Shown: positions 1 to 3,767 of the stretch, piece after piece | How the letters are laid out: each line of letters begins with the position of its first letter | Numbering within the stretch: the first letter of the stretch is position 1 | DNA from: a virus | Taxonomy: Duplodnaviria > Heunggongvirae > Uroviricota > Caudoviricetes | Direction: 5' to 3' (one strand) | DNA: 4,350 nt | IMG/VR virus record: IMGVR_UViG_2778261594_000008 | Notes under the pieces: generated by a model | Told to the model about the DNA's origin: nothing | The model's input: the letters and a program-made list of their open reading frames with translations, nothing else | The model's database searches: none | Position numbers and translations under genes: made by a program

Positions 1-1218
1 ATGAACAAACTGAGCGATACCTTGCTAAGGAAACTTCATGGTAAGCCAGCGGAGAAAAACACGTTTTATAGCGATGGCGGAAATCTGAGCGTGAAATATT
101 TAACATCAGGGAAATTAACCTGGTATTTCACTTACAGGGCAGGAACGGGAAGAGAGACACGACCGGAACGTATTAAGCTGGGAAATTATCCTGATCTGAG
201 CCTGAAAGCAGCCAGGGAAAAAGCCGCCCAGTGTCGCGCATGGCTGGCGGAGGGGAAAAATCCACGCCATGAGATGAATTACGCCGTACAGGAAGCGTTA
301 AAGCCGGTAACGGTTGGCGATGCGCTCACCTACTGGCTTGAGTCGTACGTAAAGGAAAACCGCGTGGATTATATCGCCCTGAAAAGGCGACTTAATAATC
401 ACGTAATACAGTACATTGGCGCTATGCCGCTGGATAAATGCGAGCTACGGCACTGGCTGGCCTGTTTTGACCAGGTGGCAAAGCGAACACCTGTTACTGC
501 CGGATTCGTGCTACAGACATGCAAGCAGGCGCTTAAGTTCTGCCGGAGGCGGCGCTTTGCAATCAGCAACGTTCTCGATGATCTGAACGTGGCGGACGTT
601 GGGAAAAAACCGGATATAAGCGAACGTGTCTTAAGCACCAAAGAACTGGGCGAGTTATTGCAGGCGCTGGATAAAAAAATATTTTCTCCTTACTACGTCG
701 CGTTAATTCGCCTCCTGATTGTCTTCGGATGCCGGACAGTAGAACTGAGGTTATCGGAGATCAGCGAGTGGGATTTTACCGAAATGCTATGGACCGTTCC
801 GAAGGAGCACAGCAAAACGAAGGTTGCAATATTCCGGCCCATACCGGAAGCGATCCTGCCGTTCGTCACGCGGCTGGTGGACCAGAACAGGCACACGGGC
901 TTATTACTGGGGGAAGTGAAACAGGAGGCTAGCGTATCGCAGTACGGCAGATTAGCGCACAGGAGGCTAAAACACCCTCAATGGTCATTGCATGACATCC
1001 GGCGCACCTTTACAACCATGCTGAACGATTTAGGCGTTGATCCTCACGTCGTGGAGCAGCTTACAGGCCACCAGATGCCAGGAATGCAACGCGTGTACAA
1101 CCATTCCCGCTATATTGATGCGAAACGCAATGCGCTTGATATGTGGGTGGAGCGGTTGGAGATACTGGCGGGAACACATGAAAACGTAACCACGCTACCA
1201 GTAACCAGAATAAAATAA
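1..1218 (+). CDS. int: Tyrosine recombinase / site-specific integrase, P4 (IntA-like) family, 405 aa
   Basis: ORF fills 1-1218. N-terminus has the arm-binding pattern typical of P4-type integrases (DGGNLSV...LTWYFTY). C-terminus has catalytic box I R (FGCRTVELR) and box II HDIRRT...H...VYNHSRY with the terminal Tyr. Length fits full-length family members. The ATG is at window position 1, so the promoter and att site are not visible. Confidence 0.92.
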   Translation: MNKLSDTLLRKLHGKPAEKNTFYSDGGNLSVKYLTSGKLTWYFTYRAGTGRETRPERIKLGNYPDLSLKAAREKAAQCRAWLAEGKNPRHEMNYAVQEALKPVTVGDALTYWLESYVKENRVDYIALKRRLNNHVIQYIGAMPLDKCELRHWLACFDQVAKRTPVTAGFVLQTCKQALKFCRRRRFAISNVLDDLNVADVGKKPDISERVLSTKELGELLQALDKKIFSPYYVALIRLLIVFGCRTVELRLSEISEWDFTEMLWTVPKEHSKTKVAIFRPIPEAILPFVTRLVDQNRHTGLLLGEVKQEASVSQYGRLAHRRLKHPQWSLHDIRRTFTTMLNDLGVDPHVVEQLTGHQMPGMQRVYNHSRYIDAKRNALDMWVERLEILAGTHENVTTLPVTRIK

Positions 1219-1592: not shown

Positions 1593-1781
1593 GTGTTAAG
1601 CACTGATCGGTTTATACGTGAAAAAGAATGCGAAAAGCTAACAGGCCTTAGCCGCTCATGCCGCTACCGCCTGGAAAAGGCCGGACAATTCCCATCACGT
1701 CGTAAACTTGGTGGGCGTTCTGTTGGCTGGTCTTTATCTGAGGTTTTGGCCTGGAAGGATAGCTGCAAGGCAGTTCACTAA
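1593..1781 (+). CDS. alpA: AlpA / Vis-family helix-turn-helix regulator (excisionase-like), 62 aa, GTG start
   Basis: Protein ...EKLTGLSRSCRYRLEKAGQFPSRRKLGGRSVGWSLSEVLAW matches the AlpA family pattern (TG.SR...Y.L...G.FP....LG.RSVGW...E...W). RBS AAGGGGG at 1581-1587, 5 nt before the GTG. Sits directly downstream of a P4-type integrase, as is typical. Confidence 0.8.
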   Translation: MLSTDRFIREKECEKLTGLSRSCRYRLEKAGQFPSRRKLGGRSVGWSLSEVLAWKDSCKAVH

Positions 1782-2285: not shown

Positions 2286-2465
2286 TTATTCTTTGGGTTC
2301 AATACCGCGTTGCTGTAATTCTTTTCGGATTATTCGTTTTATCCAAGCTGCTAAAGAGTCATCACCGTCTTGTTGTTGTGCTTTTTCCATCTTTTCCCGT
2401 AAGTCAGGATCTAAACGGAACTGGAAAGGAGGATTACCACGCCTTTCATTTTTGTGTGTTGACAC
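2286..2465 (-). CDS. Putative ribbon-helix-helix protein RHH-2 (59 aa, GTG start), paralog of RHH-1; may be degenerate
   Basis: Found by manual translation; not in the supplied ORF track. Sequence VSTHKNERRGNPPFQFRLDPDLREKMEKAQQQDGDDSLAAWIKRIIRKELQQRGIEPKE shows an RHH pattern (beta strand FQFRLDP, helix A, loop, helix B). Same length as RHH-1 and offset by exactly 685 bp. The only in-frame ATG (2390) would give a 34-aa fragment. The GTG overlaps the -35 of the opposing promoter. Confidence 0.4.
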   Translation of the reverse strand: MSTHKNERRGNPPFQFRLDPDLREKMEKAQQQDGDDSLAAWIKRIIRKELQQRGIEPKE

Positions 2466-2486
2466 GTCAATTACACTCCATATAAT
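2459..2486 (+). promoter_or_regulatory. Consensus sigma70-like promoter TTGACA-N16-TATAAT, rightward
   Basis: TTGACA at 2459-2464 and TATAAT at 2481-2486, both perfect hexamers with a 16-bp spacer. Homologous in position to the weaker rightward promoter of module 2 (TTGACG 3212-3217). Confidence 0.45.
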
Positions 2487-2494
2487 GTGTTTAT

Positions 2495-2506
2495 GTGTAT
2501 ATACAC
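2495..2506. promoter_or_regulatory. Perfect 12-bp palindrome GTGTATATACAC over the predicted transcription start; candidate operator
   Basis: Self-complementary. Flanked by GTGT (2487-2490) and ACACAC (2510-2515), giving an imperfect palindrome of about 30 bp. Half-site GTGT(A/T) resembles the module-2 operators. Confidence 0.4.
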
Positions 2507-2532
2507 ATTACACACAACTAGCACAAAAAACA

Positions 2533-2566
2533 ACGCCCCGCAGTGATGGGAACACATACGGGGCGT
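2533..2566 (+). other. GC-rich leader hairpin (module 1 copy): stem ACGCCCCG/CGGGGCGT, 18-nt loop, followed by TCTAACCAA
   Basis: Direct inverted repeat. Homologous to the 3281-3313 hairpin, including one compensatory pair change (C-G to A-T). No U-tract, so not a terminator. Confidence 0.5.
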
Positions 2567-2685
2567 CTAACCAAACCATTAATTGAGGTAACGATTATGG
2601 CTATAAAAGAGCATAGCTTACTCTTTATACACACACAAACGCCCCGGAAACGGAATAATCCGTTTCATAGTTCGGTTTTGTGCAC

Positions 2686-2913
2686 TCATCCTGGCGGTCG
2701 GTTTTTGCCGGATTTAAGCCGCCGTGGGTATTTATCGACAAAATCTTCAAGGGCAAATTTTTCTGGTGGCACTAAGCGCGGCGCTGGTGGTGGTATTTTT
2801 GTTCTGGTTAGTTCTTCCTCAAGTCTGGCGCAGGCTTCTGACTGCCTTTGCCGGATGATTTCATCATCTTGCGTTTGCGTGTCTTGTATTGGTGATAGTG
2901 TGTTGTTGGTCAT
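2686..2913 (-). CDS. Small hypothetical protein P2 (75 aa), paralog of P1; unknown function
   Basis: ORF with ATG start. AGGG RBS-like motif 8 nt upstream inside the end of the conserved element. Shares N-terminal MTN and the C-terminal F.LEDF.DKY.RR motif with P1. Confidence 0.65.
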   Translation of the reverse strand: MTNNTLSPIQDTQTQDDEIIRQRQSEACARLEEELTRTKIPPPAPRLVPPEKFALEDFVDKYPRRLKSGKNRPPG

Positions 2914-2921
2914 GATACTGC

Positions 2922-2965
2922 CCTGTAAAGCAATGCGCCGTAGTACCTCACACCACGGCGCTGAT
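2922..2965 (-). repeat. Copy 2 of the conserved 44-nt intercistronic element
   Basis: CCTGTAAAGCAATGCGCCGTAGTACCTCACACCACGGCGCTGAT. Differs from copy 1 at three positions, all in the predicted loop. Confidence 0.85.
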
Positions 2966-2970
2966 AGTGA

Positions 2971-3150
2971 TTATTCTGATTCTTTGGCCTTGCGACGCTG
3001 GCGGTATTCAACTTCCCGCTTTAATGCAGTTGTAACAAACTGCCCTGTACTTTCGCCGGGCATTTTTACCGCCTCAACATTGTTCATAACTTCATGTGGA
3101 ACCCTTGCCGCAACTGTTTGTGATTTTGCGTTTACTGCTTTTGTCGCCAT
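2971..3150 (-). CDS. Ribbon-helix-helix (Arc/MetJ/CopG-like) DNA-binding protein RHH-1, 59 aa
   Basis: MATKAVNAKSQTVAARVPHEVMNNVEAVKMPGESTGQFVTTALKREVEYRQRRKAKESE fits strand / helix A / G-x-S-T loop / helix B. ATG at 3150 has RBS GAGGGG 8 nt upstream. The track start at 3159 (GTG) would overlap that RBS, so the ATG is preferred. Confidence 0.7.
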   Translation of the reverse strand: MATKAVNAKSQTVAARVPHEVMNNVEAVKMPGESTGQFVTTALKREVEYRQRRKAKESE

Positions 3151-3198
3151 GTTGAGCACCCCTCATAAAAAACAAATGCAGTATGCAGGAAAAAAAAC

Positions 3199-3253
3199 AA
3201 GTGTTCAACACTTGACGTGTTTAACACCTCGATTTAAATTGGTGTTCAACACC
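3199..3253. promoter_or_regulatory. Divergent promoter region with three 11-bp palindromic operator-like sites GTGTT(C/T)AACAC
   Basis: Sites at 3201-3211, 3217-3227 and 3242-3252. Rightward promoter candidate TTGACG (3212-3217), 17-bp spacer, TAAATT (3235-3240). Leftward candidate TTGAAC (3208-3203 on minus), 17-bp spacer, CATACT (3185-3180). The operators overlap both. Confidence 0.5.
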
Positions 3254-3283
3254 TTATTTAGGCAAGGTGTAGAAACGACGAAA

Positions 3284-3310
3284 CCCCGCACTGTAGGAGC
3301 AGTAACGGGG
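3284..3310 (+). other. Leader hairpin (module 2 copy) in the 5' UTR of ORF A: CCCCG ... CGGGG with inner ACUG/CAGU stem, followed by TCTAACCAA
   Basis: Inverted repeat read directly; homologous to 2533-2566. Confidence 0.5.
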
Positions 3311-3342
3311 CTTCTAACCAACAACGTAAACGAGGAGCCGTT

Positions 3343-3537
3343 ATGGTTGCCGTAAATCATATACCACACCTTGTACACACACAAACGGCCTTTGTGTGGC
3401 GTTTTCTGGCACTGAGTGCCGGAGAATCTCAAATCATCCACGTAACCGCCTGGACGGAACGCGAAGCGCGTAACCTTTGCCCGTCCGGTTGTGTTGCTGT
3501 ATTTGCCGCCCGTATTCGCCAGGGGGTAGGCTTATGA
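3343..3537 (+). CDS. Small protein A (64 aa), possibly Icd-like (host cell division inhibitor-like) family
   Basis: RBS GAGGAG at 3332-3337, 5 nt before the ATG. Stop overlaps the start of ORF B (ATGA). The motif FVWRFLAL...WTEREAR...FAARIRQ recalls Icd-like small proteins of P4-like prophages; this is from memory and needs an HMM search. Confidence 0.6.
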   Translation: MVAVNHIPHLVHTQTAFVWRFLALSAGESQIIHVTAWTEREARNLCPSGCVAVFAARIRQGVGL

Positions 3538-3767
3538 GCCAGGAAATCACACTACAACAGGCAGCAGAACGCGCCCACCAAATCGAAGTTATTTGCGCAC
3601 TGGCAGAGGATTACCCTGGCATGATGACCGACAGCGAATCAGGGGCAATCATCGGCTTACTTAAACGCCTTAGCGGTGAGGTCTGCGTATTCCTGAGCGA
3701 TGAACAGGAAAGAAGAACGCTTATTTCTAACGAAAAAAAATGCGGAGGGGTACACCATGTGCAATAA
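3534..3767 (+). CDS. Small hypothetical protein B (77 aa), alpha-helical
   Basis: ATG at 3534 overlaps the ORF A stop (translational coupling), with AGGGGG upstream. The track's earlier ATG at 3477 lies inside ORF A and is less likely. Confidence 0.6.
   Translation: MSQEITLQQAAERAHQIEVICALAEDYPGMMTDSESGAIIGLLKRLSGEVCVFLSDEQERRTLISNEKKCGGVHHVQ

Follow-up and report, generated by a model that had tools for sequence, protein, structure and literature searches.

Paired leader hairpins in a phage satellite probably mark small cis-antisense RNAs over Icd-like translation starts

The 4,350-nt phage satellite sequence analyzed here (the window) carries two copies of a module in which a G+C-rich hairpin and a shared nine-nucleotide box, TCTAACCAA, lie directly ahead of a translation start; the question that it raises is on which strand this element acts and what it does there. 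Direct reading of the sequence bears out the anatomy given in the original prediction. The stem of copy 1 pairs ACGCCCCG (2533-2540) with CGGGGCGT (2559-2566), the stem of copy 2 pairs AAACCCCG (3281-3288) with CGGGGCTT (3306-3313), and the box follows in both. The hairpins were also said to precede the ribosome-binding sites, and indeed the Shine-Dalgarno sequences, GAGG at 2586-2589 in copy 1 and GAGGAG in copy 2, start about 19-20 nt past each stem. Likewise, alignment of the two copies confirms the single compensatory change that had been noted between them (C2534-G2565 vs A3282-T3312). The pair beside it is G-C in copy 1 and A.C in copy 2, which is a mismatch on the plus strand and a G.U pair on the minus strand. 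We consider it likely that hairpin and box together are the sense-strand image of a small minus-strand cis-antisense RNA that blocks translation of an Icd-like protein.

The hairpins had previously been read as structures of the plus-strand leader. A cis-acting hairpin or box of this kind, serving RNase III or other processing, 5′ stabilization, attenuation or antitermination for the Icd-like operon, would suit the location of the hairpins, in a predicted 5′ UTR that follows good sense promoters, and on the plus strand both hairpins fold better than shuffled sequence (z of −3.6 for copy 1 and −2.8 for copy 2). However, the minus-strand folds gain about 5 kcal/mol over these (−23.3 and −21.9 kcal/mol vs −18.4 and −16.6 kcal/mol), and relatives of the element show the same asymmetry. 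Among the stems of 120 unique hairpin variants there are 1413 Watson-Crick pairs, 188 that are A.C on the plus strand (G.U on the minus strand) and 40 that are G.T on the plus strand, so that the mismatches of a plus-strand leader fall exactly where the minus strand has G.U pairs. When the same columns of a 56-sequence alignment are read on either strand, standard pairs fill 95.7% of the cells on the minus strand vs 82.2% on the plus strand (116 G.U vs 3 A.C). Covariation in a larger alignment, the absence of which had been named as a refutation of the prediction, is present: in these 56 diverse relatives 150 cells have changed on both sides, and none of 500 shuffles reaches the observed pairing and covariation values, a control that overstates significance because the sequences are not independent. 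Stems change sequence freely, with compensation that preserves the pairing; loops vary, and wobble of the G.U type is tolerated on one strand only. As judged from these sequence comparisons, the RNA structure under selection is that of the minus strand and not of the plus-strand leader. The earlier claim of a functional RNA structure thus stands as far as a conserved, covarying element in both copies is concerned, but its placement in the plus-strand leader does not.

In the collection of most relatives, the box served as the bait. A protein scan of genome contigs returned only 3 loci and one of viral contigs 80 near-identical loci of the E. coli type; truly diverse loci were obtained solely by scanning DNA for patterns, an approach that biases the box. 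In addition, the likeness of UUGGUUAGA, the minus-strand reading of the box, to the tRNA D-loop let some false loci in (L372, for example); the identity of UUGGUUAGA to a D-loop segment is probably a coincidence.

On the minus strand the box has a pairing partner of its own. Its complement contains UGGUU, which in copy 2 pairs with AACCA (3348→3344), the complement of ATGGTT, and in copy 1 with the corresponding AGCCA. This helix between the complements of box and start is paired in 99.3% of the cells of the family alignment, in which conservation of the box is by construction because the box served as bait. The box is not a free protein-binding or antitermination site; on the minus strand its sequence is taken up by this helix. 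Antitermination and attenuation, both listed among the originally proposed roles, find no support: by direct comparison the box agrees with rrn boxA (consensus UGCUCUUUAACAA / CGCUCUUA) at 8 of 13 positions, the UCUUU core is absent, and the complement of the box is already engaged in the basal helix of the first stem-loop (stem-loop I). Of 90 unique spacers between box and start, 60 form a small hairpin whose loop contains the Shine-Dalgarno core and whose stem takes many different sequences. This small hairpin presents the Shine-Dalgarno sequence on the plus strand too, as a structured leader would, and the sense leader of the plasmid gene repA is likewise structured and bound by FinO (PMC8136791); some mirror-image structure is nevertheless to be expected of any sense RNA that is the target of an antisense RNA.

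A further conserved feature lies inside the open reading frames. The motif TAnnnT occurs on the minus strand at ORF +13/+14 in all 30 unique ORF starts of the Icd type and in 61 of 69 others, whatever the protein family, while its background frequency is 0.5-1.3% per position. The two copies in the window share the geometry TTGTGT-N17-TATGMT at this site; the putative antisense promoter was not among the results of a simple promoter scan. In E. coli K-12, a silent double change (CATTCT→CACTCC) within the symE ORF abolishes the antisense RNA SymR (PMC1891008), and the −10 hexamers in the window correspond in position to the symR −10 destroyed by that change (the changed hexamer being at ORF +13..+18). 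A minus-strand −10 conserved within unrelated ORFs has no role if the element is a plus-strand leader, nor is the box left over for such a leader, being accounted for by pairing within the antisense RNA; the plus strand moreover has no U-tract. We therefore regard a cis-acting leader structure as improbable.

The lack of a U-tract had been taken to mean that the hairpins are not terminators. The lack of a U-tract holds for the plus strand only; on the minus strand both look like terminator-type hairpins and are followed by U-rich sequence: GUUUUUUG after the copy 1 stem, and a weaker, interrupted UUUCGUCGUUUC after the copy 2 stem, so that termination at copy 2 may be inefficient. A simple scan reported neither hairpin as a terminator because its loop limit is 3-8 nt. 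In the family, the minus-strand consensus is stem-UYGYUUUUU, the counterpart of an A in 72-100 of 120 sequences at the five plus-strand positions −8 to −4 before the stem. We also considered a plus-strand −10 just before the hairpin (TAAAAT/TATAAT in phage contigs) and rejected it, as TAnnnT is found there in only 32 of the 120 variants; the general signal is a run of A, and it is therefore read as the U-tract of the minus strand rather than as a plus-strand −10.

These properties raise the alternative that the elements are plain intrinsic terminators of the minus strand, whose task would be to insulate divergent repressor promoters or to stop leftward transcription of the neighboring module's operon, with no dedicated regulatory RNA. 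Copy 1, with its good U-tract, does lie downstream of the leftward genes of module 2 (2971-3159 and 2686-2913, both on the minus strand) and, from the layout of the ORFs, would also be placed to stop that operon; several weak Rfam alignments treat hairpin and tail of this copy as a minus-strand 3′ terminator stem with a U-tail. In the case of copy 2, however, no minus-strand gene lies upstream, all genes to its right being on the plus strand. The conserved −10 at ORF +14..+19, the helix between the complements of box and start, and full-length alignment to the antisense RNAs SymR and RepX all point to a discrete RNA whose 5′ end is defined, and termination as the sole function of the element appears to us about as improbable as the leader structure.

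The antisense RNAs predicted on this basis and the features around them are listed in Table 1. The 5′ end of RNA 2 was set by alignment to the SymR 5′ end, and its 3′ end, inside the U-rich tail, is approximate. Its predicted fold, with two stem-loops as in SymR and RepX, has a minimum free energy of −30.5 kcal/mol (z −4.8), and that of RNA 1 reaches −32.1 kcal/mol (z −5.3); the sense-strand folds of the same two regions give z of −2.0 and −3.9. In searches with covariance models made from minus-strand sequences of the family, RNA 2 was matched at 3350-3267 (63.5 bits, model R1) and, by model R2, for which only unrelated phage cassettes were used, at 3350-3266 (48.6 bits), and RNA 1 at 2604-2519 (67.3 bits, or 51.0 bits with R2), all of these scores being inflated by use of the box as bait. 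The rightward operon begins with the presumed target of RNA 2. The short ORF under RNA 1 is of a type that recurs in many related loci. Three GGTGTTNAACACC palindromes, probably operators, lie around the sense promoter of module 2. The RefSeq annotation of the locus contains no ncRNA.

Table 1. Predicted antisense RNAs, their parts and neighboring features, in window coordinates
Feature	Position	Strand	Basis or remark
Predicted antisense RNA 2, ~77 nt	3272..3348	-	complementary to leader, Shine-Dalgarno and AUG of the Icd-like gene
Predicted antisense RNA 1, ~79 nt	2524..2602	-	over translation initiation region of a 25-codon ORF keeping only the Icd-like N-terminus
Putative -10 TATGAT, antisense promoter 2	3356..3361	-	ORF +14..+19; family conservation
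Putative -10 TATGCT, antisense promoter 1	2610..2615	-	ORF +14..+19; family conservation
-35-like TTGTGT, copy 2	3379..3384	-	17 nt upstream of -10; weak, 3/6; direct reading
-35-like TTGTGT, copy 1	2633..2638	-	17 nt upstream of -10; direct reading
Stem-loop II, predicted RNA 2 terminator hairpin (hairpin 2 extended by G.U pairs)	3280..3314	-	fold, family covariation, strand asymmetry
Stem-loop II, predicted RNA 1 terminator hairpin (hairpin 1)	2532..2567	-	fold
U-rich tail, copy 2, GUCGUUUCUA (UUUCGUCGUUUC counting basal U's)	3270..3279	-	weak U-tract
U-tract, copy 1, GUUUUUUGUG, after stem-loop II	2522..2531	-	direct reading, fold
Box TCTAACCAA, copy 2, minus reading UUGGUUAGA	3313..3321	.	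3′ strand of predicted basal helix, UGGUU (3320→3316), and short linker
Box TCTAACCAA, copy 1	2566..2574	.	UGGUU (2573→2569) pairs with AGCCA (2602→2598)
Small hairpin region with Shine-Dalgarno GAGGAG (3332-3337)	3322..3342	.	anti-Shine-Dalgarno CUCCUC in apical loop of stem-loop I (predicted fold)
Icd-like gene, 64 aa, presumed target	3343..3537	+	NCBIfam NF033153 phage_ICD_like, 65.5 bits
Short ORF MAIKEHSLLFIHTQTPRKRNNPFHS	2597..2674	+	Icd-like N-terminus, then unrelated sequence
Sense promoter, module 2, TTGACG-N17-TAAATT	3212..3240	+	promoter scan
Sense promoter, module 1, TTGACA-N16-TATAAT, 12/12 match	2459..2486	+	promoter scan

These features suggest how a cis-antisense RNA could act here. 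From the TATGAT or TATGCT hexamer and the weak TTGTGT 17 nt upstream, the transcript would start within the first codons of the plus-strand ORF, at about ORF +6 (window 3348 and 2602), run through AUG, Shine-Dalgarno sequence and box, and stop after about 77-79 nt at the G+C-rich, G.U-containing stem and the U-rich tail behind it. In stem-loop I, the 5′ end (AGCCA or AACCA) would pair with UGGUU so that the anti-Shine-Dalgarno CUCC is displayed in the apical loop; after a short linker, stem-loop II would both terminate the transcript and stabilize it. If it acts like SymR on symE and RepX on repA, the RNA would then pair with the fully complementary Icd-like leader and hide its ribosome-binding site and AUG, keeping the protein off. 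The downstream replication and packaging operon may stay off as well, be it for want of translation, by decay of the mRNA or by Rho polarity, and expression would need sense transcription to outrun the antisense RNA. The analysis shows the anatomy, the strand under selection, the conservation of the putative promoter and the likeness to SymR and RepX in structure and sequence; production of the RNA in the element, translational repression and any effect on downstream genes are the steps of this scheme that we infer. An antisense RNA over the first gene of a replication and packaging operon would, if true, amount to an added post-transcriptional lock; to our knowledge, regulation in these satellites has so far been described only via proteins (AlpA, repressors).

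RNA-level control of a first gene of the Icd or Kil type, whose translation gates the operon downstream, is known from phage P1 (C4/icd) and from P4 (CI/kil). Among the roles first suggested for the hairpins, an sRNA-like immunity component with P4 as precedent comes nearest to the cis-antisense RNA proposed here; the element is unrelated to the P4 CI leader, in which the motif is absent. An RNA of the C4/CI type, which RNase P would cut from the plus-strand leader and which would target in trans the transcript that it came from, would suit an Icd-like target, as in P1 (c4-icd-ant) and P4 (CI-kil), and the box does contain ACCA. Against this, the plus-strand hairpins gave nothing beyond chance-level matches to any Rfam family at E ≤ 10, ARAGORN found nothing tRNA-like in the way of a tRNA or tmRNA, the kil/icd-like gene of P4 has a different leader, as do P4-type loci in general (annotated as the ash family), and the strand asymmetry favors the opposite strand. 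The C4 and CI RNAs are cut from the sense transcript and act via short complementary boxes, and neither has a sequence or structure match with the window; we hold such an RNA to be very improbable. Least probable of all is a DNA-level element (a protein-binding inverted repeat, nick site or origin-like hairpin): an inverted repeat adjoining an invariant 9-mer does resemble the nick-site layouts of relaxases and Rep proteins, but the compensated stems, one-strand wobble and variable loop speak against it, the module operators are other palindromes, and the element always lies between promoter and Shine-Dalgarno sequence.

The element is found well beyond the window. DNA like window 2440-3560 was found, mostly as partial matches, in 1489 of 5426 complete E. 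coli genomes, with at least 80% of it covered in 44, and the same cassette precedes many unrelated phage genes, including those for HNH and GIY-YIG homing endonucleases, Cpn10, primases and small Cys-rich proteins. The predicted order of the cassette is U-tract, terminator hairpin, GGUUAG junction, Shine-Dalgarno-presenting hairpin, ATGGCT and an antisense −10 at +14..+19, and the roughly six opening codons of the gated gene, whichever that is, would move along with it. The literature searched yielded nothing relevant on the box, on the hairpin sequence or on Icd-like leaders in PICIs, and none of the papers in the library searched names both RepX and SymR. A leader hairpin such as this one is open to misreading when one strand alone is considered.

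Several known antisense RNAs invite comparison. In the immI region of P22, sar (RF00262) runs from the first codons of ant to a GAAGCCC...GGGCUUC hairpin, in which A.C of the sense strand corresponds to G.U in sar; sar lies beside the ribbon-helix-helix repressors Arc and Mnt. Rfam sar scored 19.6 bits on the hairpin of a related cassette and had no match in the window at E ≤ 10. Because only the hairpin matches, locally and at 7.9 bits, sar was rejected as the counterpart; it lacks a TCTAACCAA-type box and a basal helix, and its −10 lies at +7..+12. FinP, which in F-like plasmids covers the translation initiation region of traJ as an antisense RNA of two stem-loops, resembles the predicted RNAs in that layout and is likened to them via RepX only; RepX has been described as FinP-like, with about 50% identity (PMC8136791). 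Unlike the window RNAs, FinP is extended at its 5′ end and carries an RNase E site, the spacer GACA.

RepX, 75 nt long, has two stem-loops and a GUUA linker and lies antisense over the ribosome-binding site and AUG of repA (El Mouali et al. 2021, PMC8136791). In the R1162/RSF1010 countertranscript (RF00043), the AGCCA/UGGUU pairing and GGUUAG are identical to the complement of the window box, the ORF begins ATGGCT, and TAGGCT stands on the antisense strand at +14..+19, the register seen in the window. On the antisense strand of an IncQ plasmid, the RepX region is matched by covariance models R1 (19.1 bits) and R2 (20.6 bits). Conversely, RF00043 matches copy 1 at 18.1 bits (E 0.35), and no match to copy 2 was found; all of these scores are far short of the RF00043 gathering score of 55. 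The targets differ, repA being the first replication gene of IncQ plasmids and the window target being Icd-like; a RepA-family helicase is encoded in the satellite too, though not right after the cassette but six genes downstream of it.

SymR of E. coli shares this build. It is a 77-nt cis-antisense RNA with its −10 at ORF +14..+19 of the target and its 5′ end at +6 that lies over the AUG and Shine-Dalgarno sequence of symE (RF01809; Kawano, Aravind & Storz 2007, PMC1891008), much like the RNAs predicted in the window. Model R1 aligns with annotated symR over its full length (22.7 bits; 5834-5922 of L429, annotated at 5836-5912). Rfam SymR matches a related phage cassette at 29.3 bits (E 6e-4, gathering score 61) and neither window copy at E ≤ 10; with Rfam run over the whole window nothing fell on the hairpins, informative sub-threshold matches coming only from small slices and related loci. 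At the sequence level the window has the promoter register of SymR, with the −10 inside the target ORF and a start near +6, and its predicted folds have the same two-helix build, in which pairing between anti-start and linker makes the 5′ stem and a long stem-loop follows on the 3′ side. In both, the junction includes UUAG and the 3′ stem-loop is long, rich in G+C and topped by GUG...CAC, and the basal helix is compensated between them (AGUCA/UGAUU in SymR vs AGCCA/UGGUU in copy 1). SymR ends without a U-tract, whereas the predicted window RNAs have a U-rich tail; 3′-end formation in these RNAs may therefore not be classical intrinsic termination. SymR represses translation of a harmful protein, the SOS-induced toxin SymE of the AbrB fold, where the window target belongs to NF033153; symE is under LexA, whereas the sense promoter in the window, at which no LexA box was noted, is under a ribbon-helix-helix repressor module of the YlcI/YnfO type. 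Unlike SymR, the window element resides in a phage satellite and is present in two copies. Based on these likenesses we tentatively propose, at somewhat less than even confidence, that hairpin and box are one side of a portable sense/antisense cassette some 130 bp long, and that chromosomal SymR, plasmid RepX, the Icd-like leaders in E. coli satellites and hundreds of unannotated phage loci belong to a single superfamily of mobile antisense gates on translation. The result suggests a place for SymR and RepX within a much larger mobile class of antisense-gated phage translation starts.

The left end of an E. coli phage satellite makes up the window: an integrase gene and an AlpA homologue, then two regulatory modules in tandem. 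A chromosomal copy of the window (98.8% identity) lies between roxA and phoQ, and its gene content past the window comprises small ORFs, DUF4222, a RepA-family helicase, SSB, major capsid, head decoration and small terminase. Both modules share one layout: a leftward small-gene pair, a rightward promoter, a hairpin and box, a Shine-Dalgarno (SD) sequence and an ORF. The likeness of the module-1 ORF (2597-2674) to the Icd-like gene of module 2 ends after about 14 codons, and the ORF is 25 codons long with a stop at codon 26. This short ORF (MAIKEHSLLFIHTQTPRKRNNPFHSS) was found again in many loci, and the tandem-module arrangement is therefore conserved and not a one-off deletion.

Features of the window and its two modules
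Feature	Position	Strand	Match or remark
Integrase	1-1218		
AlpA homologue	1593-1781		PF05930
YlcI/YnfO-type protein, promoter-proximal gene of leftward pair, module 1	2286-2465	minus	NF041551
Rightward sigma-70-type promoter, module 1	2459-2486	+	12/12 match
Hairpin and box, copy 1	2533-2574		
-10 hexamer TATGCT, predicted antisense promoter 1	2610-2615	minus	TTGTGT 17 nt upstream
YlcI/YnfO-type protein, promoter-proximal gene of leftward pair, module 2	2971-3159	minus	NF041551
Rightward sigma-70-type promoter, module 2	3212-3240	+	
Hairpin and box, copy 2	3281-3321		
Icd-like protein, 64 aa, module-2 ORF	3343-3537	+	NF033153, 65.5 bits
-10 hexamer TATGAT, predicted antisense promoter 2	3356-3361	minus	TTGTGT 17 nt upstream

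The original prediction placed a leader hairpin on the + strand of each module. Re-reading of the sequence bore out its coordinates and both stems, the identity of the box TCTAACCAA in the two copies and the single compensatory pair (C-G in copy 1, A-T in copy 2), and both hairpins are more stable than shuffled sequence. Next to the compensatory pair, copy 1 has G-C on the + strand where copy 2 has A.C, a mismatch that becomes a G.U pair on the minus strand. For both hairpins minus-strand folding is about 5 kcal/mol more stable than + strand folding, and on that strand U-rich sequence follows the hairpin (GUUUUUUG in copy 1; the weaker UUUCGUCGUUUC, with an interrupted U-tract, in copy 2).

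Relatives, several hundred loci in all, were collected by an Icd-like protein search and by DNA pattern searches in viral contigs, most of them with the box as bait. Their stem sequence is highly variable and the pairing constant. Counted without preference for either strand, the stem positions of 120 unique hairpins comprise 1413 Watson-Crick pairs, 188 A.C on the + strand (G.U on minus), 40 G.T on + and 27 others. When 56 diverse minus-strand sequences were aligned with MAFFT, the consensus structure was paired in 95.7% of cells and both sides had changed in 150 cells, values matched by 0 of 500 column shuffles and by no slid register; shared phylogeny makes these statistics optimistic. Taken as + strand, the same columns are paired in only 82.2% of cells, and the minus strand has 116 G.U versus 3 A.C. 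It is thus the minus-strand transcript that is the selected RNA: a structured, covarying element is kept across the 56 relatives, but it pairs better on the minus strand than as the + strand leader first proposed. A common tRNA D-loop segment (as in ...GCTCAGTTGGTTAGAGC...) has exactly the sequence of the box complement UUGGUUAGA, so the pattern scans also collect tRNA genes (such as locus L372); a tRNA fragment with this complement also appears in a published CRISPR-repeat table.

Four further features accompany the hairpin. Upstream of the stem on the + strand, an A-run is followed by R-C-R-A, so that the minus strand reads stem-UYGYUUUUU, a terminator-like tail. In 99.3% of cells the box complement UGGUU is paired to the complement of the ATGGCT/ATGGTT start region (AGCCA or AACCA), which accounts for the box itself and for the strikingly conserved Met-Ala starts; as in the hairpin stem, G.U in this helix is A.C on the + strand. 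Of 90 unique spacers, 60 place the SD core in the loop of a short hairpin between box and AUG, the stem of which has many different sequences, and the anti-SD is therefore exposed in a loop of the predicted antisense RNA. Finally, minus-strand TAnnnT (TAGAAT, TAAAAT, TATGCT, TATGAT and others) occupies ORF +13/+14 to +18/+19 in 30/30 unique ORF starts of Icd type and 61/69 of other types, whereas at any other position of these ORFs its frequency is about 1%; as a -35, the window's TTGTGT is weak. The non-Icd cassette ORFs encode HNH+AP2 and GIY-YIG+NUMOD3 homing endonucleases, Cpn10, a primase-like protein (RepB_primase/DUF5906), a helicase and small Cys-rich proteins (66-98 aa). Since TAnnnT is kept in the front part of unrelated ORFs, it is a nucleic-acid signal and not a protein constraint, and a nucleic-acid constraint likewise accounts for the convergence of the N-termini on MA[DE]xx[ILFS]. 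In environmental phage contigs from IMG/VR (L095, L111, L113, L118, L130, L137, L160, L164, L168, L192, L328-L427), the hairpin, TCTAACCAA, SD hairpin, ATGGCT and antisense -10 precede many unrelated genes.

The reading with the best support is a cis-antisense RNA of SymR/RepX type encoded in each module. Transcription of the predicted RNA would start from a promoter within the first ORF codons and stop at the minus-strand hairpin of copy 1 or copy 2, and the RNA would pair with the complementary mRNA leader, hiding the SD and AUG of the Icd-like gene. Because that gene is the first of a long rightward operon, a translation block may also reduce expression of the replication and packaging genes downstream of it. 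By established knowledge, C4 of P1 acts this way on icd-ant, and CI of P4 on the left operon. The copy 1 hairpin is also placed to terminate the module-2 leftward operon.

We read the YlcI/YnfO-type proteins of both modules as ribbon-helix-helix repressors. The palindrome GGTGTTNAACACC occurs in three copies around the module-2 promoters (3201-3254), and module 1 has another, TGTGTATATACACA (2488-2508); these are probably the operators of the two repressors, which would then differ in specificity. A 75-nt segment with 81% identity between modules (2218-2292 and 2903-2977) crosses the junction of the two leftward genes; inside it, a strong minus-strand hairpin, GCGCCGTGG...CCACGGCGC (2935-2961), followed by AUUGCUUUAC, may act between the cistrons as a terminator, attenuator or processing site. 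Between alpA and the module-1 leftward operon, the hairpin GCGGCC...GGCCGC (1926-1954), with T-runs on both sides, is likely a bidirectional terminator; a weak Rfam match, STnc50, aligns it as its terminal hairpin. The motifs ACAAYGTGMAACAA and GACACAATCA, repeated in the int-alpA intergenic region (1263-1303, 1513-1560), may be arm-type or AlpA binding sites.

Rfam searches on short slices gave matches below family thresholds: SymR to a related cassette on the antisense strand (29.3 bits, E 6e-4), whose hairpin also scores 19.6 bits against the P22 sar 3' hairpin, and Plasmid_R1162 (RF00043, the RepX family) to another cassette (26.1 bits) and to copy 1 (18.1 bits). The symE leader of E. coli K-12 has its parts in cassette order, namely a hairpin, CTAATCACAA, an SD-presenting hairpin, ATG and ATTCTA at +14..+19, and the annotated SymR 5' end is symE ORF +6. 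SymR, which represses SymE synthesis, is abolished by two silent changes, CATTCT to CACTCC (Kawano et al., PMC1891008); these fall exactly in the +14..+19 hexamer, the cassette's antisense -10 position. The repA leader of an RSF1010-type plasmid has a hairpin, CCTAACCACCAA, an SD hairpin, ATGGCT and AGCCTA at +14..+19. RepX is a 75-nt antisense RNA across the repA RBS and AUG, with two stem-loops and a GUUA linker; it is bound by FinO and controls copy number (PMC8136791). With its GGAG...AUGGCU, the printed RF00043 consensus corresponds to the repA-type leader in sense orientation (comparison locus L430, 801-875; window 2531-2604), whereas RepX is described as antisense to repA (PMC8136791), so the Rfam seed may be on the strand opposite to RepX.

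A covariance model from the 56 minus-strand sequences (R1) gives an end-to-end alignment to annotated symR (22.7 bits; 5834-5922 of comparison locus L429, annotated 5836-5912) and to the antisense strand of the RepX region (19.1 bits); P22 sar has only the hairpin in common with it. A second model, R2, from non-Icd phage cassettes only, recovers both window copies at full length on the minus strand with 51.0 and 48.6 bits, part of which the bait box contributes. The predicted RNAs (3348 to 3272 and 2602 to 2524) form two stem-loops, as in SymR and RepX, with z of -4.8 and -5.3 (sense strands, -2.0 and -3.9).

RefSeq annotation of identical loci holds no ncRNA, and our literature searches found no description of the window element. 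It would act as SymR and RepX do and is alignable with both through the covariance models, but it scores below both Rfam gathering thresholds and has a different target gene, and is therefore not SymR or RepX proper; we file it as a putative cis-antisense RNA occluding the translation start region, of the two-stem-loop FinP-like type. In other P4-like loci (L004 1200-1500; L002 6904-7242) another leader stands before the Icd-like gene; it is annotated 'ash family protein' and is similar to the P4 CI region, not to the hairpin-box cassette; Icd-like genes thus have at least two alternative RNA-control leaders. On an alignment gathered largely with the box as bait, one portable cassette may link SymR, RepX, the satellite Icd-like leaders and many phage genes.
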